From NCBI GenBank assembly GCA_964230555.1, contig CAXRIX010000066.1, positions 903-64,902 on the forward strand: a stretch of 64,000 nt of DNA, given 5' to 3'. The position numbers and the translations under genes are program-made. The notes under the pieces were generated by a model that was given only the letters and a program-made list of their open reading frames with translations, searched no databases and had not been told where the DNA came from. This stretch comes from Bdellovibrionales bacterium. GTDB lineage: Bacteria > Bdellovibrionota > Bdellovibrionia > Bdellovibrionales > JAGQZY01. This document shows, piece by piece, positions 23,129 to 61,849 of the stretch. Each line of letters opens with the position of its first letter. Within the stretch, counting starts at the first letter, position 1.

Positions 23129-23191
23129 TATTGAACCTTTCAAGTCTTAAGGCAGTTCACCGATGGGCTCACTGCCTGGCTAGTTAATAAT

Positions 23192-40311: not shown

Positions 40312-40725
40312 CTACTTCTTTTGAATGCTGAAGCCGACTTTTTTGATCCCAGAGCCTTTAATGGCGTCGATGATGGTGGTCAGGCCATCGAGTGTCACAT
40401 CTTTATCAGCCGTTAAGACAACCGAGGATTTGCTGTTCTTTTCGGCCTCTAAGCTCACCGTTGATTTCAGTTGGTCCAAGCTGACCTTGTTGCCGTCCAA
40501 ATAAAGCTCTCCGGTTTTACTGATAACAACCTCGATATTCTTGGGAGCTTCTTTGGTTTCTCCTGAGGAGGCTTGTGGTAAGTCGACATCAATGGTGGGC
40601 TTTAGGACCAAGGGCGCTGTCACCATAAAAATAATGAGGACCACAAGTATGATATCGACCAATGGTACGACATTGATTTCAGCTATGGGTTGATCTTGGT
40701 CACTATTGTAGGAGCCGCCGGCCAT
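40312..40725 (-). CDS. ExbD/TolR-family protein
   Basis: INVVPLVDIILVVLIIFMV is the characteristic TM with the conserved Asp. 137 aa. Confidence 0.85.
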   Translation of the reverse strand: MAGGSYNSDQDQPIAEINVVPLVDIILVVLIIFMVTAPLVLKPTIDVDLPQASSGETKEAPKNIEVVISKTGELYLDGNKVSLDQLKSTVSLEAEKNSKSSVVLTADKDVTLDGLTTIIDAIKGSGIKKVGFSIQKK

Positions 40726-40728
40726 GTC

Positions 40729-41358
40729 TTATCCTTTTGTTCGTTTTGCGTATGCGATACAAAGCTCTCTGGCGACATCAATCGACTGTAAGCTTTGGCG
40801 AACCAATTTTTGAAAGTAGTTGTAGGCAATGACGGCCGGGATCGCGACAAAGAGACCGACCGCTGTAGCGACAAGGGCATGCGCAATACCAGCCATAACA
40901 ACGTCATTGCCTCCGCCGGTGTTGCCGGCTAAGTCACTGAACGCCTTCATGATTCCTAGAACCGTACCAAGAAGACCGACAAACGGGGCATTGGATCCGA
41001 CGGTTGCTAAAAAATTCAGGTTTCTCTCTAGCTTGGGTCGCTCGATCATATGAAATGAGTTGAAAACCTCAGCCAGCCCTTGTGGACCGGAAGTTTTGAT
41101 ATGGCGCAGGCCGTAAGATAAAGCGCGTCCAGGAAGACTGTCTTTATCCTTTGCGAGATCTTCCAGTTCATCCAGTGACTGACTCTGTAGCAAATCTTGA
41201 GCTTTATTTCGAAACTCAGTATTTCGTCGGTAAACAGAATGGAGGGTTAAAAATCTTTCGATAATCATTCCAATACTCAAAACACTGGTGAGCAAAAGAA
41301 TCCAAAGTAGAATTTCGGCACTGCCTTGTGAGAGGACGAAAAATTTATCGACAAGCAT
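40729..41358 (-). CDS. MotA/TolQ/ExbB-family proton channel protein
   Basis: NAPFVGLLGTVLGIMKAF and AHALVATAVGLFVAIPAVIAYN. Stop is 3 nt before the ExbD-like gene start. Confidence 0.85.
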   Translation of the reverse strand: MLVDKFFVLSQGSAEILLWILLLTSVLSIGMIIERFLTLHSVYRRNTEFRNKAQDLLQSQSLDELEDLAKDKDSLPGRALSYGLRHIKTSGPQGLAEVFNSFHMIERPKLERNLNFLATVGSNAPFVGLLGTVLGIMKAFSDLAGNTGGGNDVVMAGIAHALVATAVGLFVAIPAVIAYNYFQKLVRQSLQSIDVARELCIAYAKRTKG

Positions 41359-41469: not shown

Positions 41470-43263
41470 ATGGCGGTTTTTCACCACCAAAGAGCGGTCC
41501 TAATGATTGTCGTCGGGCTATTGCTGGGCTCCTGTTCGCCATTCACCTCCAAAAAACCACCGGTCGTTCTAATCCTTTTAGAATCTTTCTCTGAGCAAGA
41601 CTATTTGTGTGCCGACTCTCGGAAGATGGATGAGCTGAGCAATTTGCAAGAAGTCTGCGATGATTTTCTTCGCTACACCCATGTTTACGCACCAACAACT
41701 TTGACTCAATCCAATATTAGCTCAATCCTGACTGGCTTGCCTTTGAGCAAGCACAACGTGACCCACAATGGTTCCGTCGGAATATCAAATCGAATTCAAA
41801 CCTTAGCAGAAAGTGCAATCAACTCAAAAATGCGAACAGCCTTTTTTTCCGGTGGCGTACCGCTTTTAAAAAAATTCGGGATTGGCCAAGGCTTCGAAGA
41901 GTTCCACGAACCTTTCCAGGGGCGAGACCCGAAATTTTTTAAAAGTTTCTCTCAGTCGGTTCGCGCCTCCATGCGGTGGCTTGATGATGAAGTTCAAAAA
42001 GGATCTTTTTTTCTCACATTCTACGCTCCAGATCTTCTTTACAAAAACCGTGTCACTCAAGATGGACTTGATAACGAACGACCAATCAGTCGAGCCTCCA
42101 GTGTTCTTGAGATCCATGAAACTATTGATGAGTTGATTGGCGAGTTGAAGGCGCGCAAGAAATGGAAAAAAAGTCATTTCATTGTGGTCGGACTCTCCGG
42201 CCCCGATCATTCGTTACGACCTTACAACCCGTTAAGTGGTCAGTACTTGCATGTTCCTTTGCAAATCAAATTATCGTCATTGGTGAAAACTAATATGGGG
42301 GAGCTCACATCTGAAATTTTGTCTTTCGCAAAGCTTGGGCGTTGGCTGCAGAAGTTAATCCAGCACAAACCTCAGCAGGGTGATCTTATTCTCTCGCCGG
42401 AGCCATCTGACATTTTTATTCCACAGCAGAACACCTGGAGTTTGTGGCGGGGGCTTAGTAATTGGGCCACTCAAGGATTGCGAAGAAAGCATTATCTGTT
42501 TGTGTTCAACCCTGATCTAAATGTTTTCGATACATTTTATGATAAGAAGGAGTATGAACCTGTTCTGCAAGATGAAGGCAAATTACTGGCCGAGAAATTT
42601 GATGTCATCAAGCAGATGAAGTCGTTTTTCCCTCAGTTCTGCCATGAATCATTGGGACGTCAATCTTGCCCTCCTAAAACTTTAAAGAAATCTAAAATCA
42701 AACAGCTGACTCAACTTTATCGTTGGCACGAACAATCCTGGATGATTGACCAACCTGTGGACCGGTTTCAAGAACGAATGGACGAGGCTTTTGCAAGAAA
42801 GCATTCTATCGTGATCCGTTGGTTGGCTTACCGTGCTCTTTATGAGCGACGTTGGGTGGATCTTTTTGAGTTGGGTAAGAAGGCGAAAAACCCAGAGTGG
42901 AAGCTGATTTCAGAGCTGAACTTACGGGAAACCCCAGGCCAGTCACCACAACGCTGTCTTCGATATTTTGTCGGAGAGAAGAAAAATGTCCGCGAGTTTT
43001 ATCAACACTGCCAAGACTCGGGTTTAAGGCGGGTGGTTGAAGGGATCAATCGGTTACGCAATAAAAAACGTCCGGCCGAAGGGTTTTGGACGCAAGTGAA
43101 CACGATTCGAAGTCGCCGCCAAGCCAAACGCTTAAACCTTGCAATGCTGTTTATCAATGATATCCACGAGCCTTTTGATTTCGCTCCGACCCTCTCGGAA
43201 CTCTACTTCTTTTTACCAGATAATGTCGAGTTTCTTGAATTAATCGATGTCGATAAATCCTAA
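41470..43263 (+). CDS. Lipoprotein with alkaline-phosphatase-superfamily (sulfatase/LtaS-like) N-terminal domain and a long helical C-terminal region
   Basis: Lipobox LLLGSC. VVLILLESFSE resembles the LtaS/EptA metal-site strand. TTLTQSNISSILTGLPLSKHNV stands where sulfatases have CxPSR..LTG..HG. Confidence 0.45.
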   Translation: MAVFHHQRAVLMIVVGLLLGSCSPFTSKKPPVVLILLESFSEQDYLCADSRKMDELSNLQEVCDDFLRYTHVYAPTTLTQSNISSILTGLPLSKHNVTHNGSVGISNRIQTLAESAINSKMRTAFFSGGVPLLKKFGIGQGFEEFHEPFQGRDPKFFKSFSQSVRASMRWLDDEVQKGSFFLTFYAPDLLYKNRVTQDGLDNERPISRASSVLEIHETIDELIGELKARKKWKKSHFIVVGLSGPDHSLRPYNPLSGQYLHVPLQIKLSSLVKTNMGELTSEILSFAKLGRWLQKLIQHKPQQGDLILSPEPSDIFIPQQNTWSLWRGLSNWATQGLRRKHYLFVFNPDLNVFDTFYDKKEYEPVLQDEGKLLAEKFDVIKQMKSFFPQFCHESLGRQSCPPKTLKKSKIKQLTQLYRWHEQSWMIDQPVDRFQERMDEAFARKHSIVIRWLAYRALYERRWVDLFELGKKAKNPEWKLISELNLRETPGQSPQRCLRYFVGEKKNVREFYQHCQDSGLRRVVEGINRLRNKKRPAEGFWTQVNTIRSRRQAKRLNLAMLFINDIHEPFDFAPTLSELYFFLPDNVEFLELIDVDKS

Positions 43264-43932
43264 CCAAAAAGGCACCTCTTGATTTTCTTTGGCTAGAGTT
43301 TTTGCGATCTCTTCAGAGTTGAAGCGATCTCGATTCAGTTCAAAAAACTGATTGGGCAAATAGGTCCGACTGATTAAAGCTAATTTATCAGTATCCTTTA
43401 AATAGACATTTCCATACTGAATAGGAGGGTGTTGTCCAAGTCCCAAAAGCTGATTCGGTAAAGGGTCTAATACTGAGTTTTTTAATGTTAAGACATTCAA
43501 GTCAATGGCTTGCGAAAGAGGGATGCTGCCCATGTTCTTCCGGTTAATGACCAGAGATGGTTGCCCGCAACTGACGTAGATCCACTGCGGACCATCTTGA
43601 ACCGCAGCAAAAACTTCAAAACCTGAAGTGTACTCTTCTTTATTGAATTCATTAAAGATCTTTTCACTGGCCATGATAACAGCCATACGCAAAATGTTAC
43701 CCATTTGCTGTAGATTTTCTTTGCGAGCATAGGGCACGGTTAGTTCCGTGTCTTCAAAGGCCATAGTAACAAAACTTTTTACCGACTGAATCACCTTGTC
43801 GGCTATGTCCGGTTGTCCCCAAGGTGTCACACAGAGTAAGAGGTTGTTTGATTTCTCGAAATCAACAACCACTGGAGGGCGGAACTTCTTTCCACCATAA
43901 GATCTTTCTGAAATTTTAATATTTAAAGCCAT
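43240..43932 (-). CDS. Hypothetical protein, possibly a degenerate PP2C-fold (pseudo)phosphatase
   Basis: LLLCVTPWGQPDIADKV, FAAVQDGPQWIYVSCGQPSLVI and LKDTDKLALISRTYL resemble PP2C strand patterns but lack the DGxGG/GDS/SDG acidic residues. ATG 43932 overlaps the upstream stop by 17 nt. Confidence 0.55.
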   Translation of the reverse strand: MALNIKISERSYGGKKFRPPVVVDFEKSNNLLLCVTPWGQPDIADKVIQSVKSFVTMAFEDTELTVPYARKENLQQMGNILRMAVIMASEKIFNEFNKEEYTSGFEVFAAVQDGPQWIYVSCGQPSLVINRKNMGSIPLSQAIDLNVLTLKNSVLDPLPNQLLGLGQHPPIQYGNVYLKDTDKLALISRTYLPNQFFELNRDRFNSEEIAKTLAKENQEVPFWLGFIDID

Positions 43933-45871
43933 ATTGTTTGAGCTTCCGTTTTGCCTTGATGTAGTATTCGCCGTCTTCAATATCTGTCTTAATAATTTCT
44001 TCCCACTTCAATTTACTGGCTTCCAGGTTTCCGAAGCGTTCCTCGATAACACTGTCCATATATATAGTTTTCATTCTATTCGAGAGTTCTTTTTCCATTT
44101 GATAAAGAAAAGCAGAGATCTTTGGATCAAAGGGGTCTACATCGGCGGCCTTTCGTGTTAAGCGAATCGCCTCGCGAATCTGCTCATTTGAATATTTTTG
44201 CTGAGCCTCGTTCAGTAAAGTGGCTTTTTTTGTTTTGATATGCCATTCGATACTAGCCAGTTTCCTTTTTGACTTTTTAACCAGATTTTTTGGGTCTGGA
44301 AGTCCAGAGTGAATATGGTTTTCATAGGCTTCAATAGCCTCTTGCCATTTCTGTTTGCGATGCAGATTATAAGCGCGATCATAGAGTTCTTTTCCACGAA
44401 GAATCTTTTCTTTGCGTTCAGCGGCCATTTTTTCGCGAATTTTTCTTTCTTCGGAGCGAGCTTCAACTTCCGTCACCAACTGGGCAATACGTGGGTTGTT
44501 GGGGTCGAGATTGGCCGCTGGCACCAGACAGGCCTTAACTCCGTCCACATCCTCTGATGTTGCATATTCTTGTTCGCATTGAGAAATCGCCGAATGAACG
44601 CGTTTTTCAAGCTCTTCTTGCTCCCGCCTCTGTTGTTCGCGCAAAGCTTTTTGGCGTTCGTTATCGCGAGCGATAATACAATCTTCTTCCATCTTTTTCG
44701 AGTCTTTGTACACCGGAATGATTGTATGTAATTTTTCGAGCTGGATTAAAGCCAACTCATAGTCTCGGTTAAGATAAAGTTGACTGGCTAACTTGTAGGT
44801 TTGAGAAACAATTTTTTGTTCGGCAGGGGAAAGTTGGTGAAAAGGGTCGGCTGAGGCTTGCTTTTTCTCCTCTTCTTTCGGCATCAGAAACTCGCTGCCG
44901 ACAGCAAGAAGCACAAAAGCGGCCGCTGCAATCATCATGATCTTTTTCTTTTTCTTTTCTTTCTGATTAGCCGCTGAGTCATTATCGATCTCCTCGGCGC
45001 TGCCGGAACCATCTTCAGGTTCGTCTAATGAAACCATCGCCACATCTTGATCAAAAAAGACCAAGGGGTTTTTATACATATTTAAAGGAATATTACTGAC
45101 TTTTCTTTTAAAAGCTTTATCACGAAGCTCAAATTGCATCGACGTTGCTCCCACAGTGATGATGTCACCACTCAGGAGTCTTGTTGGCTTTTTGGATACC
45201 AGTTTTTGACCGTTGAGCTCTGTACCTTGCTTGCTTCCTAAGTCGACAAGGAAAAATCCTTTATCTGTCTTACTGACTTCAAAGTGACTCGGTGAAGCAC
45301 TGGGTTCTCTGAGATAGACCGAAGCTCCCTCATCGCCTCCAATCACCCAAAGGTTACCCTCAAGCCTGAAATATTCAGATTTCATACCATCGCGACCAAT
45401 GATTTTTATGTAGGGTAAGCCCGAAAAGTTTTGAATGGCGGTTTTTTCGTCATCGTCTACTTCTTCTTCGTTGGTTGGAGTGTTGTCTTGGAACGATTCC
45501 ATCGCCTGCACACTATCGGAGTGGCCGTCCAAGCTGCTCTCGGCCATGGCGTTGAATTGGTTTTGACTCTGAGAGCTTTCCCCAGATTCGAATTTAAATG
45601 TATAGGGGTCGAGTAAAAAGTCTCCACTTCCTTCAAGAGTGAAATCTTTGCGTTCTTCGCCGCCGAATTCAATAAGTTTGATTTCGGAAAGTACATTCAC
45701 TCTCCAATCGCCGGACTCGTCCTCGACAACTTCGAAATGCTCGCGCGAGATACCGGGAAGTTTCTCAAGACGAATGGCGCAACCTTCTTTACGACCAATA
45801 GTGTAGGACTGTCCTTGTTGAAGCTCAATCTGTTGTAATAAAACACCGTCTCTGAAGGCTGCTAATTTCAT
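43916..45871 (-). CDS. Membrane protein with two N-terminal FHA domains, one TM helix and a TPR/coiled-coil C-terminal region
   Basis: FHA1: YTIGRKEGCAIRL..ISREHFEV. FHA2: WVIGGDEGASVYL..SPSHFEV..LVDLGSKQGTELNGQKL. KKKKK plus TM IMMIAAAAFVLLAV. ATGA overlap with the upstream gene. Confidence 0.8.
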   Translation of the reverse strand: MKLAAFRDGVLLQQIELQQGQSYTIGRKEGCAIRLEKLPGISREHFEVVEDESGDWRVNVLSEIKLIEFGGEERKDFTLEGSGDFLLDPYTFKFESGESSQSQNQFNAMAESSLDGHSDSVQAMESFQDNTPTNEEEVDDDEKTAIQNFSGLPYIKIIGRDGMKSEYFRLEGNLWVIGGDEGASVYLREPSASPSHFEVSKTDKGFFLVDLGSKQGTELNGQKLVSKKPTRLLSGDIITVGATSMQFELRDKAFKRKVSNIPLNMYKNPLVFFDQDVAMVSLDEPEDGSGSAEEIDNDSAANQKEKKKKKIMMIAAAAFVLLAVGSEFLMPKEEEKKQASADPFHQLSPAEQKIVSQTYKLASQLYLNRDYELALIQLEKLHTIIPVYKDSKKMEEDCIIARDNERQKALREQQRREQEELEKRVHSAISQCEQEYATSEDVDGVKACLVPAANLDPNNPRIAQLVTEVEARSEERKIREKMAAERKEKILRGKELYDRAYNLHRKQKWQEAIEAYENHIHSGLPDPKNLVKKSKRKLASIEWHIKTKKATLLNEAQQKYSNEQIREAIRLTRKAADVDPFDPKISAFLYQMEKELSNRMKTIYMDSVIEERFGNLEASKLKWEEIIKTDIEDGEYYIKAKRKLKQYGFKY

Positions 45872-46809
45872 TGATAGCCCCCTGCCTTTAATAAATTGCA
45901 CTCATCAAATTGCGCCTTTGCTAACTTATATTTCTTTGAATTCACATTGTTGATTAGAACCAAAGCTTTTTGAAATTCGGCTGCACAGCGGTTGTACATT
46001 AACTTGGCCTTATATTTTTGCCCATCTCGCAGATGGGTGTCGATCAAGTCGGCTCGCTTTTTTCGTGCCGTTTTCGAGTAAAGTTGGGCTCGGGTATGAT
46101 CAGGTTCAGTGGCGATGGTTGTGCCGAAAGAGTCCAGGGCCCGGCCGTACCGACCATTTTGAAAGTCTCTGAATCCCGAGATAAAATGGCGTTCAACACT
46201 GTAAATGTATTTATCGTCTTTGGCGAGAATGCTCGGTTGGTTCTCAGCTTTCTCTTTGATTAAGGCCATTCGCTCTTTCGACTCTTCAATTTGTTTTTGT
46301 AAGTCGGCGTTGGTCGCCAACTTCTCTTCGGGGAGTTCCTCTGGCGGATCTTCCAAAAGAAACAGGCCACCGGCTAGCACCAAAATTGCAATCATAAACA
46401 TGCGAAATCGCTTTTGACCTTGCTTTTTTTCTAGTTCTTCGTCAGTTGCCGGTTTCGCACTAGCCAGCTGTGGCTGTGCTTTTTCATTGGCTTTGGTTTC
46501 AAATATCATGGTTGTTTGACCAAAGCTGATTTTGTCGCCGGGACGCAAGATCGTTTTTCCGCAAGGCTTGCCATTGATCAAGGTGGTTTTACGTGAACTA
46601 ATATCCTCACACATCACATTGTTATTAAAAGTGATAACAAGCTGTTTGCGACTGGTTTTTGGGTCACTTAAAGAGATCTGACAACGAGGATCACGACCAA
46701 CGACAATCTTTGGTGGTTGTAAACGGTAAGCCTTACCAGCATCAGGGCCGCTTTGGACCTTGATTAGGAAATCGATGGCTTTGAAAATATTCCGTTTAGC
46801 TGCTGTCAC
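45868..46809 (-). CDS. FHA-domain membrane protein with TPR-like C-terminal region
   Basis: IVVGRDPRCQISLSDPKTSRKQLVI..TTLINGKP..GDKISFGQTTMIFE. TM FRMFMIAILVLAGGLFLL. The GTG start overlaps the upstream stop (GTGA). Confidence 0.8.
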   Translation of the reverse strand: MTAAKRNIFKAIDFLIKVQSGPDAGKAYRLQPPKIVVGRDPRCQISLSDPKTSRKQLVITFNNNVMCEDISSRKTTLINGKPCGKTILRPGDKISFGQTTMIFETKANEKAQPQLASAKPATDEELEKKQGQKRFRMFMIAILVLAGGLFLLEDPPEELPEEKLATNADLQKQIEESKERMALIKEKAENQPSILAKDDKYIYSVERHFISGFRDFQNGRYGRALDSFGTTIATEPDHTRAQLYSKTARKKRADLIDTHLRDGQKYKAKLMYNRCAAEFQKALVLINNVNSKKYKLAKAQFDECNLLKAGGYQ

Positions 46810-48440
46810 TCTTCGTAATTCTCCTCGTCATCGTAAACTTCTGAAAAACAGACCACATAGTAGCTAATATTGCCCATTTCTTGGATCGACTTAATAGAAA
46901 CCTCAAAATTTAAACCCGATGCTGAGGGCAGGGGGTTGGTGTGTTTTTGGTTGGGATTATCGACAGCTTTTTGCAGCAAATCCTTAAGGTTCTCGACCAG
47001 TGAGGAATCTGTTAAGTCGTCGAGGTACTTGTCTCGAATTTCATCATCATCAAAAAGTGGGTGCCCGTTGATGTAATCGTTATGCGCGATAATCATCTCG
47101 TTTTCAGGAGAAATGGCGAGCGAAGCGACTGGGAACATTTCAACCAGTTCTGAAGCCTCCATCGTTTTATCACCAATGCCAACGGACATCTGGTTGTCAT
47201 CCTCTTGCGACATTCGAGACAGTGCACTGTTGATGTTTGAGACCAATTTTTTAAATATTGGCGTCGGCGTTTTAACTTCGATATTGTTGGTACCATCTTT
47301 CAAGGCATTATTAATCTCTTCGTTAAGATCATAAAGTGGCTTAGTGATCACTTTATAGAGAAAGAAGTAAAGTACCGCACCTGCGAGCATGGTAATGAGA
47401 AGAATCTGAATCATGAGGCTTAATGTTCTGGGCACGTCCAATGCCACACGATCTAAATTGTATAAGACGACAGCATAAGCCGCCGGCGAAGGTTCACCAG
47501 TGAGCGGGTTAGTATAAAGGATCGGACGACTAACGCCAATTCTGTTATCGAGAACCTCGGAGTAGCTATTGGGCTTTTTGCGAGCTCGTTGAACAAACGG
47601 AATCGTTGAATACTTGCCACGCTGCTTGACTGGTGCAATGATATGTCCATCCAAAGCATCGACAATAAAAGCTTGATCAACACCCGCTTCGTTACGCACT
47701 GAGCGCACATTAATGCTGATTTCATTTTTACTGATTACAAAATCTCGGTTTTCCTGGACTAAGATTTTTGCTAAAGAGTCGGCCCGGCGAGTACTTTCGT
47801 CAATGACAAAGTCTCGCGAGACTTTAATGACGGGGATAACCGATAGAGCCGTTACCAGAAGCACAAAGAAAATAACAAAGGACATGACCACATACTTGAG
47901 GTCGAATTTATAGGAATACTCATAAACGCCTGGTAGTGCTACTTCTTCAACATAGTACTCAAATTTTTCCTGAATCGATAATTCGGGTTTCTGTTCTTGC
48001 TCGTTGTCTGTCTTAATATTGGAGGCTAACACCTGGACATCGTTGGATTGTGGTTCAATCATTCCGAATTCTTGGGCGACCAGAGCGTTGTTGCCTGAGG
48101 TCTGAGTTGTTGGCCTAGGTGTGTCCATGTCGGGCAAAATCGAGACGTAGTCTGGTAATTGAATAACATCAAAAATAACTTCTCCGAGAGCGAACTTATC
48201 GCCGGCGCGAAGAGCTTTGTTTTGAACTTTCACTCCATTGACCACAATCCCGTTGCTTGAGCGATTGTCGGAGAGGATAATTTTATCTTCGGTGACCATC
48301 ACCTTAGCGTGCAGCTTAGAGATTGAGGCACTCTTGATCTGTAAGGTCGATTGTGGGGAGCGTCCCAAACTGTGGCTACCTTCTTTAAGTTGAAATATTT
48401 TACCCGCTTGGGGGCCATTTAAAACCTTAATCGCCCACAT
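46806..48440 (-). CDS. FHA-domain sensor-like membrane protein (FHA, TM, periplasmic Cache/PDC-like, TM, HAMP-like, PAS-like)
   Basis: FHA: HSLGRSPQSTLQIKSASISKLHAKV..SSNGIVVNGVKV. Two TM helices flank a ~150 aa loop (AFIVDALDGHIIAP). HAMP-like ITKPLYDLNEEINNALKDG..LVSNINSALSRM. Confidence 0.8.
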   Translation of the reverse strand: MWAIKVLNGPQAGKIFQLKEGSHSLGRSPQSTLQIKSASISKLHAKVMVTEDKIILSDNRSSNGIVVNGVKVQNKALRAGDKFALGEVIFDVIQLPDYVSILPDMDTPRPTTQTSGNNALVAQEFGMIEPQSNDVQVLASNIKTDNEQEQKPELSIQEKFEYYVEEVALPGVYEYSYKFDLKYVVMSFVIFFVLLVTALSVIPVIKVSRDFVIDESTRRADSLAKILVQENRDFVISKNEISINVRSVRNEAGVDQAFIVDALDGHIIAPVKQRGKYSTIPFVQRARKKPNSYSEVLDNRIGVSRPILYTNPLTGEPSPAAYAVVLYNLDRVALDVPRTLSLMIQILLITMLAGAVLYFFLYKVITKPLYDLNEEINNALKDGTNNIEVKTPTPIFKKLVSNINSALSRMSQEDDNQMSVGIGDKTMEASELVEMFPVASLAISPENEMIIAHNDYINGHPLFDDDEIRDKYLDDLTDSSLVENLKDLLQKAVDNPNQKHTNPLPSASGLNFEVSIKSIQEMGNISYYVVCFSEVYDDEENYEE

Positions 48441-48774
48441 AGAGTGTATCTCCTAGCTGAATATCATTTCGACTGATGAAACCTTCTGTGACTTCAAGGA
48501 CTGATCTTGCCGTAAGGACTGGGGCTGGCATTCGCCAAGGCCTAAGATGCGGTTGAAGTTTCTTAACTTTCATCTCTTTGTCGAGATAAATGACGTCGAT
48601 TGGAATCGACATAAAGCAAGTGTGTATCCAATTGCTTTTCGGGAACCAAATGCCCTCATCTTCGGGAAGAGTCTTTCTTCCTATTAAGCCCTGAGCTCGT
48701 AAACGAAAGCTATCGGCGATCGTTAACTTTGGCACTAGAGTTGTATTTTTTGTTCGGTTCAACATGGCCTTCAT
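48427..48774 (-). CDS. DUF192-domain protein
   Basis: RLRAQGLIGRKTLPEDEGIWF..SIPIDVIYLDKEMKV..SVLEVTEGF fits the DUF192 pattern. No signal peptide. Starts immediately after the TadC-like stop. Confidence 0.7.
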   Translation of the reverse strand: MKAMLNRTKNTTLVPKLTIADSFRLRAQGLIGRKTLPEDEGIWFPKSNWIHTCFMSIPIDVIYLDKEMKVKKLQPHLRPWRMPAPVLTARSVLEVTEGFISRNDIQLGDTLYVGD

Positions 48775-49674
48775 TTACTGGCCTCCATAAACAAATTGCA
48801 ATCCAACCGGGGCAAAGACCATTATAAAAACGGCGGGAATAATAAAAATCATCATTGGTATTAGAATGGCTTGTGAAGCGCGGGCACCGGCTTTCTCGGC
48901 ACGCACAAAGCGCTCCAGTCGCATTTGTTCGGATTGTTCTTTTAAAACATCACCAATACTAGCACCAGTGGCGTCGGCGTCGGTGAGAACGTTCACAAAG
49001 CTAGTGACCTCGGCGATATCCAAGCGTCGCGACATCGACTTAAGCGCCTGTTCACGTGTGCTTCCAAGACGTGTATCACGCAAAACTTTATCAAATTCCT
49101 TGGCCAGTAAACTGTCTTCAGCGGCATCCGAAATTTTCTGGATGGCTCCCATAAAATCGGCACCGGCCTGAGTTGATAATGCCAGCAAATCAACAAAGAA
49201 TGGCAAGTCGACAATAATAGCTTGGTAGCGCACCTGCCTTTGTTTGTTGGCGTGAAAGTCAGGAATCATCCAGCCAATCGGAACGGCAGCGACAATAACA
49301 ATCCAAGGGTATCCCAGTTGGAGTGAAAGGTTTAAGATCGCGACAAAGGCGGGAAAGAAAAGCCCCCAAAGCATTTTAAGGCCAATGAACTCATCAACAT
49401 TGAGCTCATTTTCAAGGCCTCCTGTCATAATTTTGTATTCAATATTTTTGCGAAAATTTTTATTCTGTATACGTTTGGCATATTTGATGGTCAGTTGGTG
49501 CACCAGCGGTCGAGACATGTTGATAATCGGTGACTCGGACTTATCAGGTTGGTCGCCTGTCGCCCAAGACAAAGCTTTGTTGTCTTCATTGACTGAAAAA
49601 ATTGTGTAGACTGTCCACAGAACTGAAAAGCCAGCCAACAAGATTCCCAAATAAAGCAATAAATCACTTCCCAT
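48775..49674 (-). CDS. Type II secretion system F-domain protein (TadB/TadC-like pilus/secretion platform)
   Basis: N-terminal TM, central TMs, T2SS-F core VDLPFFVDLLALSTQAGADFMGAIQ..GSTREQALKSMSRRL..ATGASIGDVL, and a C-terminal TM. Confidence 0.8.
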   Translation of the reverse strand: MGSDLLLYLGILLAGFSVLWTVYTIFSVNEDNKALSWATGDQPDKSESPIINMSRPLVHQLTIKYAKRIQNKNFRKNIEYKIMTGGLENELNVDEFIGLKMLWGLFFPAFVAILNLSLQLGYPWIVIVAAVPIGWMIPDFHANKQRQVRYQAIIVDLPFFVDLLALSTQAGADFMGAIQKISDAAEDSLLAKEFDKVLRDTRLGSTREQALKSMSRRLDIAEVTSFVNVLTDADATGASIGDVLKEQSEQMRLERFVRAEKAGARASQAILIPMMIFIIPAVFIMVFAPVGLQFVYGGQ

Positions 49675-49702
49675 TTTTCAACCTTTTCTTTAAAAAGTCC
49701 CC

Positions 49703-50302
49703 ATGCGAGAACTCATACTCACTTCAACATCACCCCGCAGACGAATGATCCTTGAGGAAGAAGGTTTTGAGTTCCACACTTTCCCAATAGAAGTATCGGA
49801 AATTCTTAATAAAAACCTGAATTTAACGGAGCAAATTTCGGATTGCGCTCGGCAAAAGGTCGAGGTCGCCAAAAATAGCCCTAAGTTACCGAAATCAAAT
49901 AACATTTTATTGCTTGGTGCAGACACAGTGGTGGTTTTTAATGGCCAAATTCTCGGTAAACCAAAAAACGAACAACACTCTATTGATATTTTAAACCAGC
50001 TCTCCGGCCAGGTCCATCAGGTGATTACAGGCTTTTGTCTGTTCGATCTCAGAACAAAACGTCTCATTTTAGGGCACGAATTGACCACTGTTGAGTTTGT
50101 GAATTTACGCCAACAGGATATTTTGGATTATGTGCGATCCGGAGATCCTCGAGACAAGGCCGGATCTTATGGCATTCAAGGCGAGGCAAAAAAGTTCGTT
50201 AAAGAATATCGAGGTTCACTTAATAATGTTATAGGTCTTCCTATTGAAAAAATAAAAAAGGTCATGCAGGAAAATGCTTGGGACATTAAAAGAAAATCTT
50301 AA
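49703..50302 (+). CDS. maf: Maf-family nucleoside triphosphate pyrophosphatase
   Basis: LILTSTSPRRRMIL, GADTVVVFNGQILGKP, KAGSYGIQG. Confidence 0.9.
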   Translation: MRELILTSTSPRRRMILEEEGFEFHTFPIEVSEILNKNLNLTEQISDCARQKVEVAKNSPKLPKSNNILLLGADTVVVFNGQILGKPKNEQHSIDILNQLSGQVHQVITGFCLFDLRTKRLILGHELTTVEFVNLRQQDILDYVRSGDPRDKAGSYGIQGEAKKFVKEYRGSLNNVIGLPIEKIKKVMQENAWDIKRKS

Positions 50303-50960
50303 TACTATTCAAAAGCGAATCGCTTCCGAATTGAAATTGCAAGACAGCTTGCAAAAGCCGACGATTCTAGCGGTTTCCAAGCGACAGTCGGTCGAGAAAA
50401 TCAAAGCCCTTGCCGACATGGGGATAGAAGATTTCGGCGAAAACTATTTGCAAGAAGCTTTGGATAAAAAGCAAGAGCTAAAAGACTTGCCTATACGCTG
50501 GCATTTTATCGGGCAGCTCCAGCGAAAAAAAATAAAAGACATCGTCGGTGAATTTTACCTTATTCAGACTGTTGCGCGTAAAGTAGAGTTAGAAAAAATT
50601 GCGCAAGTGGCGGCCGAGAAAGCCTGCACCCAGAACGTTTTAATCCAGGTGAATATTGCCAGTGAAGACAGCAAGCAGGGAGTGCTCACTTCTGATTTGG
50701 CGGAACTGGTAGAAGCGGCGATCAAAACACCGCGGGTCAACTTGCAAGGCTTGATGTTTTTTCCGCCTCTTACCGATAATGAGTCTGAAGCTTTAGTGTG
50801 GTTCGAAAAGTGCGCACAGGTTTTTAAAAACTGTCAGAAGCACAACCCAGAAAATTTTCAGACTCTTTCCATGGGAACCAGTCAGGATTTCCCACTGGCT
50901 CTTCGCAAAGGCGCTACACTCTTGCGTTTGGGAGAAGTCTTACTCGGTCCGCGTGACTAA
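50274..50960 (+). CDS. yggS: YggS-family PLP-binding (PLP homeostasis) protein
   Basis: ILAVSKRQS (PLP lysine), FGENYLQE, WHFIGQLQRKK, SMGTSQDF. Confidence 0.9.
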   Translation: MLGTLKENLNTIQKRIASELKLQDSLQKPTILAVSKRQSVEKIKALADMGIEDFGENYLQEALDKKQELKDLPIRWHFIGQLQRKKIKDIVGEFYLIQTVARKVELEKIAQVAAEKACTQNVLIQVNIASEDSKQGVLTSDLAELVEAAIKTPRVNLQGLMFFPPLTDNESEALVWFEKCAQVFKNCQKHNPENFQTLSMGTSQDFPLALRKGATLLRLGEVLLGPRD

Positions 50961-51095
50961 TTTCGAGTTATTTATTGCTATTTCCGTGAGTTCATACCAC
51001 TATAGTGGAGTCTGTAGGGGCAGGTATGGAGTCGTTAGTCATTCGACTGGGGAATAAGCTTCATAATCTCTTCAATAAAACCTGAGGGGTGGTCG

Positions 51096-51926
51096 ATGAA
51101 CTTTTCGTTGCAAGATAAAAAAGTCGGTTTCATTGGACTGGGAAATATGGGGCAAGCCATACTGACAGCGCTGATAACAAGTAAAACACTTAAGCCTGAG
51201 CAAGTTTTTGTTAACAATCGCACGCCGGGTAAAGTTCAAAAAATGGTCAGTCGGTTTCAGGTGAATCCTGTCGAGACGACCGAAGAATTGGTTGAAAAAT
51301 CAGACATTATTATTTTGGCGACTAAGCCCCAGGACTTACTGGATCTTCTGGAGCCTTTACGCAAAACCTTCACCACAGACAAGGTGGTCATTAGTTTAGC
51401 AGCTGGAATCCAAATCCCAACTCTTCGCAAATACATTCAAGAGGCCGAACTGGTCCGCGTGATGCCTAACACGCCCATTTTTATTTGCCGGGCCGTGGTT
51501 TCGTTTTGCTTGGAAAAACCGAATCTTGTCATCGAAAATTTGGTTAAAAATCTGTTTTCTCCTCTTGGGTATGTGGTGATGACTGAAGAGGGTGAAGCTT
51601 TTTCGGCGCTGATGGTTGCATCGGCCAGTGGCACTGGTTTTTTATTGGAGATGATGAAATATTGGCAGGATTGGATAGAAGAAAACGGCATCGAGCCAGA
51701 AGTTGCTAGAAAAGTTGTCATAGAGACTTTTTTAGGCACAGCAAAGCTGGCTGCGGAAAGTCCGGATGTCAGTTTTGACCAGCAAACAGTGAGGGTTGCG
51801 TCAAAAAAAGGGGTCACAGCAGCAGGATTAGCATCAATGCGTGAGCTTGAACTTGAAGGAATCCTAAGAATGAGTTTTAATAAAGCCCTGATGCGGGACC
51901 ACGAACTCGCTAAGGAAAATTCATAG
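51096..51926 (+). CDS. proC: Pyrroline-5-carboxylate reductase
   Basis: VGFIGLGNMGQAI, ILATKPQD, VRVMPNTP, SKKGVTAAGL. Confidence 0.9.
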   Translation: MNFSLQDKKVGFIGLGNMGQAILTALITSKTLKPEQVFVNNRTPGKVQKMVSRFQVNPVETTEELVEKSDIIILATKPQDLLDLLEPLRKTFTTDKVVISLAAGIQIPTLRKYIQEAELVRVMPNTPIFICRAVVSFCLEKPNLVIENLVKNLFSPLGYVVMTEEGEAFSALMVASASGTGFLLEMMKYWQDWIEENGIEPEVARKVVIETFLGTAKLAAESPDVSFDQQTVRVASKKGVTAAGLASMRELELEGILRMSFNKALMRDHELAKENS

Positions 51927-51952
51927 CGAAAATAATGACCAGGGAGGGAATT

Positions 51953-52468
51953 ATGAGAATCGCACCCATCGATATTGCCAATAAAACCTTTGGGCGCAAG
52001 ATATACGGTCTTGATACTGAAGAGGTCCACGACTTCCTTCGTGACGTTGCCGATGAATTTGAAACCCTGACTCGCCAACATGAACAGCTTGTAGAAAAAC
52101 AAAAAACTTTAGAGACTTCGGTAAAAGATCATCAAGAGCGCGAAGAAACTTTAAAGCAGACTTTGCAAGCCGCTTCTCAGATGTCAGAGAGAATGAAGGC
52201 TGAGGCACAACGCGAGGCCGACTTGATCATCCGTGAGGCTAGGCAGCGCTCCGATATAATTATTAAAGAGGCTCGTGAGTCTTTGCGAAATATGTATCAG
52301 GACGTCAACGATCTTAAAAAATCTAGAATGCAGTTTGAAGCCGGTCTTAAATCTTTAGTGAAGGCACACTTGGCGATGATTGATCAAGGCCATGCAGTCG
52401 TCCCTGACCCAGAAATCGGTGAGCCTGACCTTGAAATTCCGATGCCGGAAAAACCTGCAGAGATCTGA
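51953..52468 (+). CDS. divIVA: DivIVA-domain protein
   Basis: MRIAPIDIANKTFGRKIYGLDTEEVHDFLRDVADEF is the canonical DivIVA N-terminus, followed by coiled coil. AGGGAGGGA RBS precedes ATG 51953. Confidence 0.85.
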   Translation: MRIAPIDIANKTFGRKIYGLDTEEVHDFLRDVADEFETLTRQHEQLVEKQKTLETSVKDHQEREETLKQTLQAASQMSERMKAEAQREADLIIREARQRSDIIIKEARESLRNMYQDVNDLKKSRMQFEAGLKSLVKAHLAMIDQGHAVVPDPEIGEPDLEIPMPEKPAEI

Positions 52469-56894: not shown

Positions 56895-57377
56895 TTAGTT
56901 GAAATCTTGGTCGGTGGGCGTGTTCATCACAATCAATTGGTGAAGTTCACCTTCGACTCCAAGAGTTCTAGCAATCGCTGTGTATTGTTTACGGCTTTGT
57001 AAGACCTTCGCACGAAAACATCCATTAATTTCAAACATCGCATCGCTGTCGATGCCCAGTCGATTAAGGCCAAGAACCAACTCGGTGAGAGCTTTCTTTT
57101 CTAAGTCATTGCGGGTGTTCTTGCCGTCATCACAGACAAAGCGGTAGGCCTTACCCTGAGCCAGTTCAAAGGCTCTTCTCTCAGGTGTGTTCTCATCCTG
57201 AATTAAATGTTTTTTATGAAACTCTTGCTTGTCGATGAAATCTTCCTGTTTTTCACTGATTTCAGTCAAAAGATTCTCTGCGACTTCACAAGACCCACAG
57301 TTTTGAGTTTTCTGTGACCAGGCCGCACAACTGAGGATAATAAAAATTCCTAATAATAATTGAGCTAAGTTTTTCAT
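56895..57377 (-). CDS. Small lipoprotein of unknown function (candidate immunity/partner protein of the upstream gene)
   Basis: MKNLAQLLLGIFIILSCAAW is lipobox-like. ATGA overlap (57374-57377) with the upstream Cys-rich gene. Confidence 0.6.
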   Translation of the reverse strand: MKNLAQLLLGIFIILSCAAWSQKTQNCGSCEVAENLLTEISEKQEDFIDKQEFHKKHLIQDENTPERRAFELAQGKAYRFVCDDGKNTRNDLEKKALTELVLGLNRLGIDSDAMFEINGCFRAKVLQSRKQYTAIARTLGVEGELHQLIVMNTPTDQDFN

Positions 57378-58207
57378 CTTGCCGTTCCTCCTCCGCGCCA
57401 GACATAACAGCCGCGCAGTTGTCGACGATTACTTCCAAGGCGTTGATCGATGGGGAGTGAAGATTGAACTCCTGCGTGCCACATACCATCGGTTCCTAAA
57501 AATTCAATGTGTCCATGTCGATCTCCACCACTGTAGTTGGGATTACCTTGTCGGTAACCTCGGTAAACTCGAATCACACCAGGACGATTACAGGCTGACA
57601 TATCAAGATCAAAACCTTTGTTTTCAAGACACCCGAAGTAGTCGTAGGCGCTACCACCACAATGAAACTGTCGGTCGCCCACGCGTTGTCCGAACTCACG
57701 AGCCATACAAGCTAAGGCTGTTCGAACGCCGACGGCACAGTAACCGGCACCACTGCTGCGGCCGCGACTGCGAGCGTAGCTGTAAGCCTGGCCGCGCCCA
57801 TAGCCAGCGCATCGGGTGAGAGCGGCAGCGTATTGACACGCCCCCGGTCCTCTTGTCATGGGGTAAGTGCCCCTTGCCGGAGCGATGGCTGCTTCTCTTT
57901 CTTCGTCAATATCGGGAAGAGCCGGTAAGTTTTCACATCGGCGCCACGAATTGTTGCTGAGGTCGTTACGATCGGGGCGACAATAGCCTGCAGAAAACTG
58001 ACGCATTAAAAATCGACAGTTGTATTGAACTCGGCTATGGCAGCAGTATCGGGAAACACGAGAACCACAGGTGCCATCATCAAAGCGTACGTTAGGATCA
58101 ATATCATTACTTCTCATAAAAAATGGAAGTGTGGTTTCGGCCAGCGCTGGGCTGGTCAAAGCCAGGAATCCGAACATCATTAATATAGATATAAGTATTT
58201 TTCTCAT
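57374..58207 (-). CDS. Sec-exported Cys-rich protein, possibly a papain-fold (CHAP/NlpC-P60/Tae4-like) amidase
   Basis: Signal peptide MRKILISILMMFGFLALTSPALA. 14 Cys. Candidate nucleophile in GYCAVGVRTAL (C157) and GVIRVYRG..GHIEFLG (H233), in the order typical of papain-like cell-wall amidases. Visibly GC-richer than its flanks. Confidence 0.4.
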   Translation of the reverse strand: MRKILISILMMFGFLALTSPALAETTLPFFMRSNDIDPNVRFDDGTCGSRVSRYCCHSRVQYNCRFLMRQFSAGYCRPDRNDLSNNSWRRCENLPALPDIDEEREAAIAPARGTYPMTRGPGACQYAAALTRCAGYGRGQAYSYARSRGRSSGAGYCAVGVRTALACMAREFGQRVGDRQFHCGGSAYDYFGCLENKGFDLDMSACNRPGVIRVYRGYRQGNPNYSGGDRHGHIEFLGTDGMWHAGVQSSLPIDQRLGSNRRQLRGCYVWRGGGTAR

Positions 58208-59828: not shown

Positions 59829-60344
59829 ATGTCGAAACGGAAATTAAGAGATCTGACAGCGGTGTTTTTTGTGGGCCTTTTTCTAATGACCTGGGAGCCA
59901 GTTTTTATCTGGCTCTTGGTTGGCGGGCTGGTGCTACTGCAGCCGGACTCTCGTGAAGATTCGAATGAAGAAAAAACGTCATCAAAAAACCTTCTGCAAT
60001 TGATTCGAGAGGACGCTCGGCGATTTGGGGTGAAAATGCCCCAGCGTCAATCGCGTCGAAGCCTTTTGCTGCAAATATACGGTCAGTATGAAGAAGCAAA
60101 ACGGCAATATCCCCATTTGAAGTGTGAATACCGCGAGGTGATTAACGAAATGTGGACCTCATTGGCAGCAGATGCCAATCCTCATCATTGGAATCAGGTT
60201 CTAACATCAGTGATTGCTGACTGGCCGACCCGGGGAACAACGGCTCCTTCACAGGGTGTGAAAGAAAAACTACAAAGGGTTAAAGAGTTGAGTCAGCAGT
60301 GGGATGAGGCTAAAAGAGAGGCTATGGGAGGTGCCAATGTTTAG
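59829..60344 (+). CDS. Membrane-anchored protein of unknown function in the psp cluster
   Basis: AAGGAG lies 7 nt upstream of ATG 59829. Two short TM segments (TAVFFVGLFLM, FIWLLVGGLVLL), then a charged soluble domain. Confidence 0.6.
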   Translation: MSKRKLRDLTAVFFVGLFLMTWEPVFIWLLVGGLVLLQPDSREDSNEEKTSSKNLLQLIREDARRFGVKMPQRQSRRSLLLQIYGQYEEAKRQYPHLKCEYREVINEMWTSLAADANPHHWNQVLTSVIADWPTRGTTAPSQGVKEKLQRVKELSQQWDEAKREAMGGANV

Positions 60345-61119
60345 ACAACACTGGGACGAATTCGAAAAAAATGTCAGCAGCATCGCCGATGATTTCAAGG
60401 GATTGATTTTTGACAAATTCAAGCAGTCGAAAACAAAAGTTGAAAAAATCGTAACCTCTGACCCAAATCAAGCCAAAGAAGCCTTTGTGAAATGGGGGAA
60501 AGAGTATGTCGACAAGGTGAAGGTCAAGGCTGAAAGTGAAAAGGCACAAAAAGCCAAAGAGAATTTTTTCACTTTATTGCGCAACCTTGGTGTCAACGAA
60601 GCGGTTATTATCGAAACCTTTCAGCAGAACAAAAAGGAGCTTCTTGATCCCTTAATTGGAGAAACGGTGGCTATTGTCGCGTTGGTGTTGGGTTGGAGTC
60701 AGAAAGATAAAGAGGCTTTCTCGCAAGCCCTAGGAGAAATTGGTGTGGCCGGTGTTTTTGCTGCCAAACCCTTTCTTTGCTTAATTGCGATTTGTGGATT
60801 GGCCTATGGTTACCAGGAAAACTTTCATCCCGAAGCTTTTAAAAAAGGTGGTGTTCTTGGGTTGGCTGGGATCACGGCGGTGGCATTGTCACCCGGTGGC
60901 TTTGTTGGTTTACTTTCAGCCATTGTGACGATTCTTTATCTTAATAAACGGCTACAGGTCGATCGTCCGATTGAGGCGCAATTAAAAGAGTTGTTTCAAC
61001 ATATTAAAAATGGTGGATTTTTTAAAGAGGTGCGTGGAGCCTGGAGGAACTTTGAGAGCTTTCTCTCCAAACTCTTTCAACGCCCACAGGACGATGCTAT
61101 AATGAACCCCAATCCCTAG
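60337..61119 (+). CDS. Membrane protein of unknown function in the psp cluster
   Basis: GGGAGG lies 5 nt upstream of ATG 60337, and the gene overlaps the previous stop by 8 nt. Charged helical N-terminus, then 3-4 Gly/Ala-rich TM helices. Confidence 0.6.
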   Translation: MFRQHWDEFEKNVSSIADDFKGLIFDKFKQSKTKVEKIVTSDPNQAKEAFVKWGKEYVDKVKVKAESEKAQKAKENFFTLLRNLGVNEAVIIETFQQNKKELLDPLIGETVAIVALVLGWSQKDKEAFSQALGEIGVAGVFAAKPFLCLIAICGLAYGYQENFHPEAFKKGGVLGLAGITAVALSPGGFVGLLSAIVTILYLNKRLQVDRPIEAQLKELFQHIKNGGFFKEVRGAWRNFESFLSKLFQRPQDDAIMNPNP

Positions 61120-61138
61120 ACAGCGATTTGGGAGGGGT

Positions 61139-61849
61139 ATGCGTCGACTGATATTTTTTGCTTTATTTTTTTCAAGCTCTGGATTGTTGGCGCAAAATCT
61201 GGCGAGCACTCCGGTTTTACCTTGGTCGGCCCACTTTATGCGGGCTGGGTCAGATCAATGGCAACAACAGGATTTAACCGAAACAATGTCTGCTTCGGCA
61301 GCCAGCCTTTACAGTCAGGCTGCTGAGTTGAAATTAAAAAATGATTTACGATGCGGCAACAATTCTTCCATTTTTGATACCAGCCTTCCAAGTTTAGAAA
61401 ACAAAAAGGTGACCACTCGGTTTCGTTTCGACCCCGTGTCTCGGTCTATGACTTTGGATGTTTTTGTAAAAGAGGCCGGACAGTATCGTGAGGTTTTGCG
61501 AAGCTCTTACTCTGTGTACCGAGGCGAAGAGAACTTAGGAAGACTTCAGCAGGTTTCAATGCTGAATGTACAAAATCAACAGACCAGTCGTATGGGGTTT
61601 CTCAATCGTCCTTTTCTGACGACAGTGGCCCAGGCTCTAGGAGCGGGTGATACCCCGGTCGAAACCAACAGTCCTTTTGCGCGCGATTGGATTAAGCTTT
61701 TGCAAAATGCGGAAAGAGGGTACGTGTGTTGTTTCAATCAAAACTGTCGTGACCACTTACAAAATGTACCATTGCAACCGACGCCACAGCCAGACGTTGA
61801 ACCCGGTGAAATTCGGCGGGCTGAATCCGGTGAACGCTCCGCCACATGA
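61139..61849 (+). CDS. Exported protein of unknown function
   Basis: Signal peptide MRRLIFFALFFSSSGLLAQ. GGGAGGGG RBS. Confidence 0.6.
   Translation: MRRLIFFALFFSSSGLLAQNLASTPVLPWSAHFMRAGSDQWQQQDLTETMSASAASLYSQAAELKLKNDLRCGNNSSIFDTSLPSLENKKVTTRFRFDPVSRSMTLDVFVKEAGQYREVLRSSYSVYRGEENLGRLQQVSMLNVQNQQTSRMGFLNRPFLTTVAQALGAGDTPVETNSPFARDWIKLLQNAERGYVCCFNQNCRDHLQNVPLQPTPQPDVEPGEIRRAESGERSAT

Follow-up and report, generated by a model that had tools for sequence, protein, structure and literature searches.

How obligate bacterial predators convert prey contact into invasion is still an open question, and recent work puts the Tad (type IVc) pilus machine at the heart of this step. The closest described system is found in Bdellovibrio bacteriovorus HD100, in which Bd0470 (T2SS-F/TadC), Bd0471 (DUF192), Bd0472-Bd0474 (FHA) and Bd0475 (hypothetical) form one operon (PMC12034629), known in strain 109J as EP01_RS14000-14025. 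Bd0470 was recognised by Seef et al. (2021) as an orthologue of KilH/CpaH (TadC) lying away from the main tad cluster Bd0110-Bd0119, and the position of tadC apart from tadB, among genes for FHA and TPR proteins, has been described again recently (bioRxiv 10.64898/2026.07.08.737194, July 2026). A second system, the Kil apparatus of Myxococcus xanthus, has its TadC gene kilH (MXAN_4650) adjoining MXAN_4649 (FHA) and MXAN_4648 (FHA and TPR). In this study, a stretch of 64,000 nucleotides (hereafter the window) from contig CAXRIX010000066.1 of a Bdellovibrionales bacterium (assembly GCA_964230555.1) was analysed, and we provide evidence that six of its genes, termed g1 to g6, probably constitute the orthologue of Bd0470-Bd0475 in an uncultured Pseudobdellovibrionaceae genome, that is, the tadC operon of a Tad machine together with an accessory module. 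The features are as follows (aa, amino acids; TM, transmembrane segment).

48775-49674, minus strand: g1, 299 aa, TadC-type inner-membrane platform protein, counterpart of Bd0470/KilH
48427-48774, minus strand: g2, 115 aa, DUF192 protein, counterpart of Bd0471
46806-48440, minus strand: g3, 544 aa, FHA-sensor protein, counterpart of Bd0472
45868-46809, minus strand: g4, 313 aa, FHA domain, TM and periplasmic helical/TPR-like part, counterpart of Bd0473
43916-45871, minus strand: g5, 651 aa, two cytoplasmic FHA domains, TM and periplasmic TPR part, counterpart of Bd0474
43240-43932, minus strand: g6, 230 aa, cytoplasmic PPM/PP2C-fold protein probably without catalytic aspartates, counterpart of Bd0475
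43729-43752, minus strand: loop D61-x-[E/D]-x-T65-[S/T]-P-[F/Y] of g6, candidate phospho-acceptor or FHA-docking motif
49675-49702, no strand: intergenic region of 28 nt between the divergent start codons of g1 and maf

The locus and the HD100 operon agree in their six products, the order of these, the divergent maf (Bd0469) and the nearby yggS, proC and divIVA (Bd0466, Bd0465 and Bd0464). Bd0474 has two cytoplasmic FHA domains and an extracytoplasmic TPR domain, which is the layout of g5, and Bd0475 has 228 residues against 230 in g6. On the other hand, Bd0473 has 386 aa and g4 only 313, HD100 carries additional genes between yggS and maf (Bd0467 and the peptidoglycan deacetylase Bd0468) that are not so placed here, and while a PSORT note reports a signal sequence for Bd0471 (PMC6561027), no signal peptide was found in g2 or in any of the 15 orthologues compared, and a hydrophobic N-terminus is missing from g2 and from its orthologues in 14 loci. 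HD100 proteins were not among the listed matches of the homologue searches with g6, g1 and g3. The original prediction for this DNA, made from its letters alone, knew of no described system with this exact gene set; since Bd0470-Bd0475 has been published as one operon (PMC12034629), the gene set is already known, and what is new here are the pseudophosphatase call, the conserved threonine loop, the sensor-like FHA protein and the depth of conservation.

The published function of the HD100 operon is predation. In transposon sequencing (Tn-seq), the predation fitness W of Bd0470-Bd0475 was 0.033, 0.015, 0.0021, 0.0025, 0.0036 and 0.023, respectively (Duncan et al. 2019, PMC6561027 Data Set S4), and in a mini Tn-seq screen it was 0.0006-0.064 (PMC6561027 Data Set S4), thus all six genes, with W near zero, are needed for predation (PMC6561027). 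The transposon mutant of Bd0470 (tadC) does not attach to prey, while that of Bd0474 attaches and neither kills nor rounds prey; both mutants have been complemented. Core tad genes including tadC could not be deleted, and TadC is found together with the secretin at the invasive pole (bioRxiv 10.64898/2026.07.08.737194). In addition, Bd0474 interacts with Bd0075 through the periplasmic TPR domains in a two-hybrid assay, and an interaction of Bd0473 with Bd0475 has been predicted with an ipTM of 0.60 (both PMC12034629). The link to pilus function and prey contact that had been suggested for the six genes is supported, whereas the description of the tadC gene as an orphan does not hold, because the Tad machine of B. 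bacteriovorus takes its TadC from just this separate gene, whose product is essential and located at the invasive pole. Only TadC among the six products has an assigned role, and the operon is the least understood part of the Tad machine.

The six open reading frames (ORFs) follow one another from 49674 down to 43240, and every joint is a 0-nt gap or an overlap of 4-17 nt: g2 starts straight after the stop codon of g1, g2 and g3 overlap by 14 nt, g3 and g4 by GTGA, g4 and g5 by ATGA (given the ATG start of g5 at 45871), and g5 and g6 by 17 nt (given the ATG start of g6 at 43932). All these junctions are as first predicted. The longest ORF of g5 begins at GTG 45901 and that of g6 at TTG 43980; orthologues of g5 align from residue 1 of the ATG form, however, and 83 homologues of g6 have 228-232 aa and begin with MA(L/I)N at the ATG, thus the ATG starts were taken as right. 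Since no more than 28 nt separate the divergent starts of g1 and maf, each promoter must sit inside the other gene, that of the operon within the coding sequence of maf. The stop region of g6 overlaps the 3' end of a convergent sulfatase-like ORF (41470-43263) by 24 nt (43240-43263), which leaves no space for an intergenic terminator. Scanning of 42800-50400 returned 17 promoter-like sites against 11.8 +/- 3.3 expected, nothing above chance, and 9 terminator-like sites against 9.3 expected, with no sign of internal transcription units. The layout supports one tightly coupled unit of six genes.

To place the operon among its relatives, a locus scan with g6 as the most specific marker and one genome per GTDB species gave 12 loci (L001-L012), and four more distant loci (L013-L016) were reached via individual homologues; gene order was read by tblastn of the six proteins and their neighbours. 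All of L001-L012 come from Bdellovibrionales or Pseudobdellovibrionaceae metagenome-assembled genomes, the closest being CAZPOV010000001.1 with 94-99% amino-acid identity, and NCBI contains a protein 100% identical to g3. The six-gene order is kept in 15 of the 16 loci (L001-L014 and L016), to about 30% identity, wherever the contig is long enough; contig ends cut L002, L005 and L008, in which 2, 5 and 4 operon genes, respectively, are present in the same order. L013, L014 and L016 keep all six genes, with g6 about 28-33% identical. Because L001-L014 and L016 repeat both the gene order and the tight junctions, the co-occurrence of the six genes is not due to chance, and a lack of conserved order, which would have spoken against the original prediction, was not observed. 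The exception is an Oligoflexia locus (L015, in metagenome-assembled genome GCA_016715815.1, 8762-14246), which keeps TadC, DUF192 and the three FHA genes and has no g6-like gene next to these five; the next gene there lies on the opposite strand and encodes 199 aa without a Pfam hit. Either the pseudophosphatase is a later addition to the operon or it is encoded elsewhere in the L015 genome. TadC (g1) is the best conserved of the six proteins, with 81-99% identity in L001-L012 and 44-69% in the distant loci, and g4 is the least conserved (47-96% in L001-L012). A decayed TadC remnant was considered and rejected, g1 being the most conserved of the six genes.

The Kil apparatus offers a second parallel, and the likeness named in the original prediction was found in the literature: in both systems a TadC homologue stands beside FHA (MXAN_4649, PrgH-like) and FHA-TPR genes, KilD also combines FHA and TPR, and a Tad-derived machine serves predation. 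The Kil cluster differs in that it also contains tadB (kilG), cpaB and the pilins, in that neither a DUF192 nor a PP2C-fold gene is listed for it, and in that the Kil ATPase has an FHA domain of its own. Since the five-gene core reaches Oligoflexia and the TadC-FHA link is common with Kil, these data suggest an accessory module of Tad machines that is old and associated with predators.

The assignment of g1 rests on a Pfam T2SSF match (PF00482, E 1.1e-16, 61.3 bits against a cut-off of 25.2) over residues 160-287. With 299 aa, one T2SSF domain and three TM (5-23, 96-114 and 269-287), g1 is a half-size platform protein, unlike the two-domain PilC/GspF, and several of its 1659 homologues at E<=1e-10 are called 'tight adherence protein C' by JGI. 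The Pfam match of g2 is to DUF192 (PF02643, 2.4e-20, 72.9 bits against a cut-off of 27), and there is a weak match to PDB 3m7a. These matches, together with the missing signal peptide of g2, uphold the initial calls of a T2SS-F/TadC-like protein and of a cytoplasmic DUF192 protein. While no functional study of DUF192 was found in the literature, one report of Tad linkage exists, in which DUF192 genes lie inside Tad operons of Erysipelotrichales (Firmicutes) (PMC12786226).

A hydrophobicity scan gave 3, 0, 2, 1, 1 and 0 TM for g1 to g6, and a Pfam profile search found four FHA domains (PF00498) in total across g3, g4 and g5, all above the cut-off, so the three FHA membrane proteins with four FHA domains called from the sequence withstood the profile searches. 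In g3 (FHA 3e-13, Yop-YscD_cpl 7e-16) a cytoplasmic FHA domain (1-95) is followed by a disordered linker, TM1 (184-202) with a long helix, a periplasmic alpha/beta domain, TM2 (342-360), HAMP-like helices and a C-terminal PAS-like domain. The best Foldseek match of its AlphaFold2 model (pLDDT 78.7) is the WalK sensor model 9a5d_A (389 columns, E 2.5e-12), and a weak NF033092 match covers residues 190-389. The part from TM1 to the PAS-like domain superposes on WalK-type sensor histidine kinases over these columns; g3 differs from them in its added N-terminal FHA domain and in the absence of the kinase core (DHp and catalytic ATPase domains), the protein ending after the PAS-like domain. Foldseek matches of the FHA domain include GarA, OdhI, FhaA and DgcB, with 30-32% identity to the DgcB FHA domain, and YscD cytoplasmic domains are also among the hits. 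No full-length g3 homologue from outside Bdellovibrionota/Oligoflexia was found among 72 listed matches. Judged from the model, g3 looks like a canonical phosphothreonine-binding FHA domain joined to a WalK-like sensor half without a kinase domain.

The other FHA proteins have drifted further. In g4 (FHA 2e-13, weak TPR_2, TM 135-153) the pocket keeps Arg and Ser and, in this lineage, has Gln in place of His and Arg in place of Asn; in g5 (FHA 1.3e-20 in two stretches, TPR_2 4e-4, TM 311-329) the first FHA domain keeps GR and SRxH and lacks the Asn, and the second has lost the phosphate-binding Arg (GG) in this lineage, while L013, L015 and L016 keep it. By contrast, the pocket residues GR, SxxH and NG of g3 are invariant in 31 homologues, down to 29% identity. 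Thus one of the four FHA domains, that of g3, keeps a fully canonical phosphothreonine pocket and the others are partly degenerate. BLASTP found g4 and g5 similar in the FHA domains alone (28% over 92 aa), with no detectable paralogy of their periplasmic parts. All three FHA proteins match Pfam Yop-YscD_cpl (PF16697) at 4e-13 to 7e-16, TIGR02500 reaches 25-29 bits against a cut-off of 86, mainly in the FHA region, and the best NCBIfam match of the FHA domains is FhaB/FipA, far under its cut-off.

No significant Pfam or NCBIfam match was obtained with g6, only noise (DUF2944, urate oxidase), thus the fold was needed to place this protein. Its AlphaFold model (pLDDT 86, pTM 0.87) matched only PPM/PP2C phosphatases in a Foldseek search against PDB (probability 1.0, E 6e-11 to 1e-7), with tPphA, PstP, MspP, PppA, RsbX, SpoIIE and PPM1A/eukaryotic PP2Cs as structural matches and the RssB phosphatase-like domain (3f79) among the hits. 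The 'PP2C-like' call is therefore correct as a fold, and a PHYRE2 note on Bd0475 likewise calls it phosphatase-like (PMC6561027 supplement). The g6 family comprises 479 representatives at E<=1e-3, the listed matches having about 150-280 aa and most of them 210-235. A family profile matched the PDB sequence of tPphA at E 0.001, and weak Pfam matches occur in 4 (SpoIIE), 3 (PP2C) and 1 (PP2C_2) of 24 members (best 8e-5), g6 itself failing the gathering scores of Pfam PP2C, PP2C_2 and SpoIIE.

The metal site, however, seems to be lost. In the HMMER alignment 'VGDSR' of tPphA (D119) faces 'CGQPS' of g6 (Gln124) and 'CSDGL' (D193) faces 'ISRTY' (Arg189); D119 and D193 are the residues mutated in PDB entries 2y09 and 2xzv. 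The five expected metal-ligand positions of g6 are Pro19, Thr36, Gln124, Arg189 and Pro221, and across 145 representatives they hold Pro, Thr, Gln/His/Gly, Arg/His/Ser and Pro, without a conserved Asp. Only D61 and E106 are near-invariant acidic residues in this set, and neither is aligned with a metal ligand. Judging from these alignments, g6 is probably a pseudophosphatase with family-wide loss of the catalytic aspartates, which makes it unlikely that g6 erases phosphothreonine. Pseudophosphatase PPM domains such as the C-terminal domain of RssB and TAB1 have likewise lost their metal ligands and use the PPM fold for binding or as an adaptor; g6 differs as a stand-alone protein of 230 aa in a family of its own, with the signature W38, D61, T65, N97, E106, G164 and F222-W223. 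Its full set of near-invariant residues in the 145 representatives is P19, W38, G39, D61, T65, N79, N97, E106, G123, P125, P157-L158-P159, G164 and F222-W223. In alignments of the family the DxExT[S/T]P[F/Y] loop is the most conserved feature of g6 (D61 in 128 of these representatives, T65 in 141, P67 in 113 and F/Y68 in 122), and it forms a coil between helices 43-60 and 76-96 in a block of lower confidence (pLDDT 67). The T65 loop is exposed and acidic, its Thr is strictly conserved, and g6 is encoded together with FHA domains; the loop is therefore a plausible candidate phospho-site or docking motif.

These findings narrow the hypotheses for the operon: its 'phosphatase' is very probably non-catalytic, the g3 pocket is strictly conserved while the others drifted, and a sensor half seems to be grafted to the FHA domain of g3. 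We propose that the operon most likely encodes an accessory module in the inner membrane, by which signals of prey contact and polarity are coupled to the motor of the Tad pilus. A coupling device fits because FHA domains lie on the motor side, sensor or TPR domains lie in the periplasm, and the Bd0474 mutant attaches without killing. In such a device, g1 would supply the TadC half of the platform in the inner membrane that the Tad ATPase acts on, with the genes for the other machine parts elsewhere in the genome, and g2-g6 would form the accessory module, co-produced with TadC and presumably at a constant ratio to it. The periplasmic domains (Cache/PAS-like in g3, TPR in g4 and g5, with g5 binding the TPR protein Bd0075) may report prey contact or envelope state, the FHA domains may dock on phosphothreonine written by a kinase encoded elsewhere, and the dead phosphatase g6 may serve as an adaptor, perhaps being itself a phospho-target through its DxExT[S/T]P[F/Y] loop. 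The module would then license or position the Tad motor at the invasive pole for steps after attachment. Both the signal flow and the binding partners are inferred.

As writers of the phospho-signal, two kinases of B. bacteriovorus are candidates to act in trans on the FHA proteins, the predation-essential PknG-like Bd3148, which is expressed in attack phase with W = 0.003 (W: PMC6561027), and Bd1804. Both are annotated as Ser/Thr kinases, and Bd1804 has a mini Tn-seq W of about 0.0005 (PMC6561027 Data Set S4). An earlier proposal makes Bd3148 the writer for DgcB, an FHA-gated cyclase, and a checkpoint of kinase, FHA protein and pseudophosphatase might share its kinase with DgcB. The most specific form of this idea, in which a PknG-like kinase in trans phosphorylates the loop Thr of g6 on prey contact, the g3 FHA domain reads it, and a complex with the FHA-TPR proteins and DUF192 gates TadC and the Tad ATPase for invasion, is speculative and rather unlikely as a whole; if true, such a pseudophosphatase checkpoint would be unlike the PpkA-PppA-Fha1 circuit.

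Several points weigh against orthology with Bd0470-Bd0475 and against a phospho-regulated coupling module. The orthology is drawn from synteny, domains, lengths and flanks given in the papers rather than from direct alignment, and an interaction of the operon proteins with TadC has not been reported anywhere. The assignment of tPphA D18, D34 and D231 to Pro19, Thr36 and Pro221 of g6 was made by motif position and strand order, not by computed superposition. At L015 no g6 lies beside the other five genes, thus the module may do without g6 or have its gene at another site in the genome. Pfam revealed no kinase among the operon genes or in a sweep of 40 other window ORFs that encode 150 aa or more. 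A model that depends on phosphorylation alone is weakened by the FHA pockets, three of which, out of four, have degenerated partly or clearly in this lineage. The main alternative is a scaffold that works without phosphorylation or a kinase, in which the three FHA proteins ring or cage the TadB/TadC platform as SctD does in type III secretion, their FHA domains hold the ATPase or polarity factors, and g6 is a structural adaptor. We consider this possible, though somewhat unlikely. Like SctD (YscD/PrgH), which belongs to the inner-membrane ring of type III secretion, and the gliding-motor proteins GltG/GltJ, the FHA proteins have a cytoplasmic FHA-type domain, a single TM and a periplasmic domain, and a scaffold is consistent with the PF16697 matches of all three and the YscD domains among the Foldseek hits, with the lost Arg in the second FHA domain of g5 and the lost His and Asn of g4, with the lack of a kinase in the window and of catalytic residues in g6, and with the same severe phenotype of all six mutants, as structural parts would give. 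However, the matches to PF16697, TIGR02500 and NF033760 cover the FHA region only, and the periplasmic parts are TPR or Cache/PAS-like rather than ring-building or TonB-C, the scores staying far under family cut-offs (25-29 bits against 86 for TIGR02500). The invariance of the g3 pocket in 31 homologues argues that a phospho-ligand is still read and makes a phospho-input plausible, and attachment, kept by the Bd0474 mutant and lost by the tadC mutant, suggests a step that is regulatory or comes later rather than loss of the whole machine. Scaffold and phospho-dependent models are not mutually exclusive. GltG (FHA) and GltJ (GYF) form a pair comparable to Bd0474 (FHA) and Bd0075, which has been described as GYF-like.

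Two further explanations fare less well. In the original prediction, FHA and PP2C modules were thought to read and erase phosphothreonine, so that g6 would be an active PP2C phosphatase in a write-read-erase switch comparable to PpkA-PppA-Fha1 of type VI secretion or PknB-PstP-FhaA/FhaB of actinobacteria. While the PPM fold, for which PppA and PstP rank among the best structural matches, the weak SpoIIE and PP2C matches in some family members and the FHA genes linked to a PPM-fold gene beside an envelope machine are all features expected of such a switch, tPphA D119 and D193 align to Gln and Arg, the ligand positions of the 145 representatives hold no conserved Asp for a binuclear metal site, and no Pfam model reaches its gathering score on g6. 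In addition, the locus differs from these circuits in having no kinase and in FHA proteins that span the membrane and carry periplasmic sensor or TPR domains. With a g6 that seems to lack the metal aspartates and only one of four FHA pockets fully canonical, an active switch appears quite improbable. A division or morphogenesis module acting with maf-yggS-proC-divIVA rather than with a pilus is more improbable still. It would agree with the divergent adjacency of these genes, kept in most loci including L015 (divIVA alone being near in L013 and L016), and with the regulation of division by FHA proteins in actinobacteria. Nevertheless, divIVA, proC and yggS are a constitutively expressed transcription unit of their own in B. 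bacteriovorus, the six genes are intact in L010, which lacks all four neighbours, and in L011, which has only proC left, and the first gene encodes a pilus platform protein; the division role once suggested has only adjacency to a divergent cluster behind it, and this cluster is lost or reduced in the same two loci. Coupling of contact and polarity signals to the Tad motor thus stays the reading that we prefer.

The flank at 49703-52468 consists of maf-yggS-proC-divIVA, transcribed divergently from the operon, and the same divergent adjacency to tadC was observed in most loci. STRING-based clustering also puts maf with the FHA genes (PMC12034629), and polar localisation is one idea for this long-lived linkage of maf/divIVA with tadC. 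As stated in the original prediction, the window seems to be free of genes for a Tad ATPase, a secretin, a prepilin peptidase or a Ser/Thr kinase according to the Pfam sweep of the 40 ORFs, small pilin genes being outside its reach. In B. bacteriovorus, TadB, the TadA ATPase, the secretin and the Flp pilins are encoded at Bd0110-Bd0119. What the sweep did find were housekeeping genes, such as those for leucine-catabolism-type carboxylases, for the synthesis of pantothenate and biotin, and for ValRS, a serpin and an MMPL transporter. A mobile or defence island was rejected on the basis of these neighbours and a flat GC content of 0.42-0.48 across the window.

An ExbB/MotA-like and ExbD pair (40312-41358, minus strand) lies on the same strand downstream of the operon, as in 12 of the 16 loci. 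The convergent sulfatase-like gene separates g6 from this pair in the window; in L010 (10741-11778), L011 (10745-11613) and L013 (10771-11876) the pair follows directly after g6, and the sulfatase-like gene is absent from L010 and L011. This proton-driven stator pair may be functionally tied to the tadC-FHA module. Elsewhere in the window, Pfam gave no match at 1e-5 for several sizeable ORFs, of 698, 326, 277, 271 and 236 aa (21047-23143, 25359-26339 and 57374-58207 on the minus strand, 60304-61849 on the plus strand), and the 698-aa ORF adjoins one of 718 aa with only a weak amidohydrolase match. The serpin, of 430 aa (8573-9865, plus strand, Pfam Serpin 5e-74) and encoded in a genome of a predatory lineage, adjoins a leucine-catabolism-like set of carboxyltransferase, enoyl-CoA hydratase, biotin carboxylase and HMG-CoA lyase.

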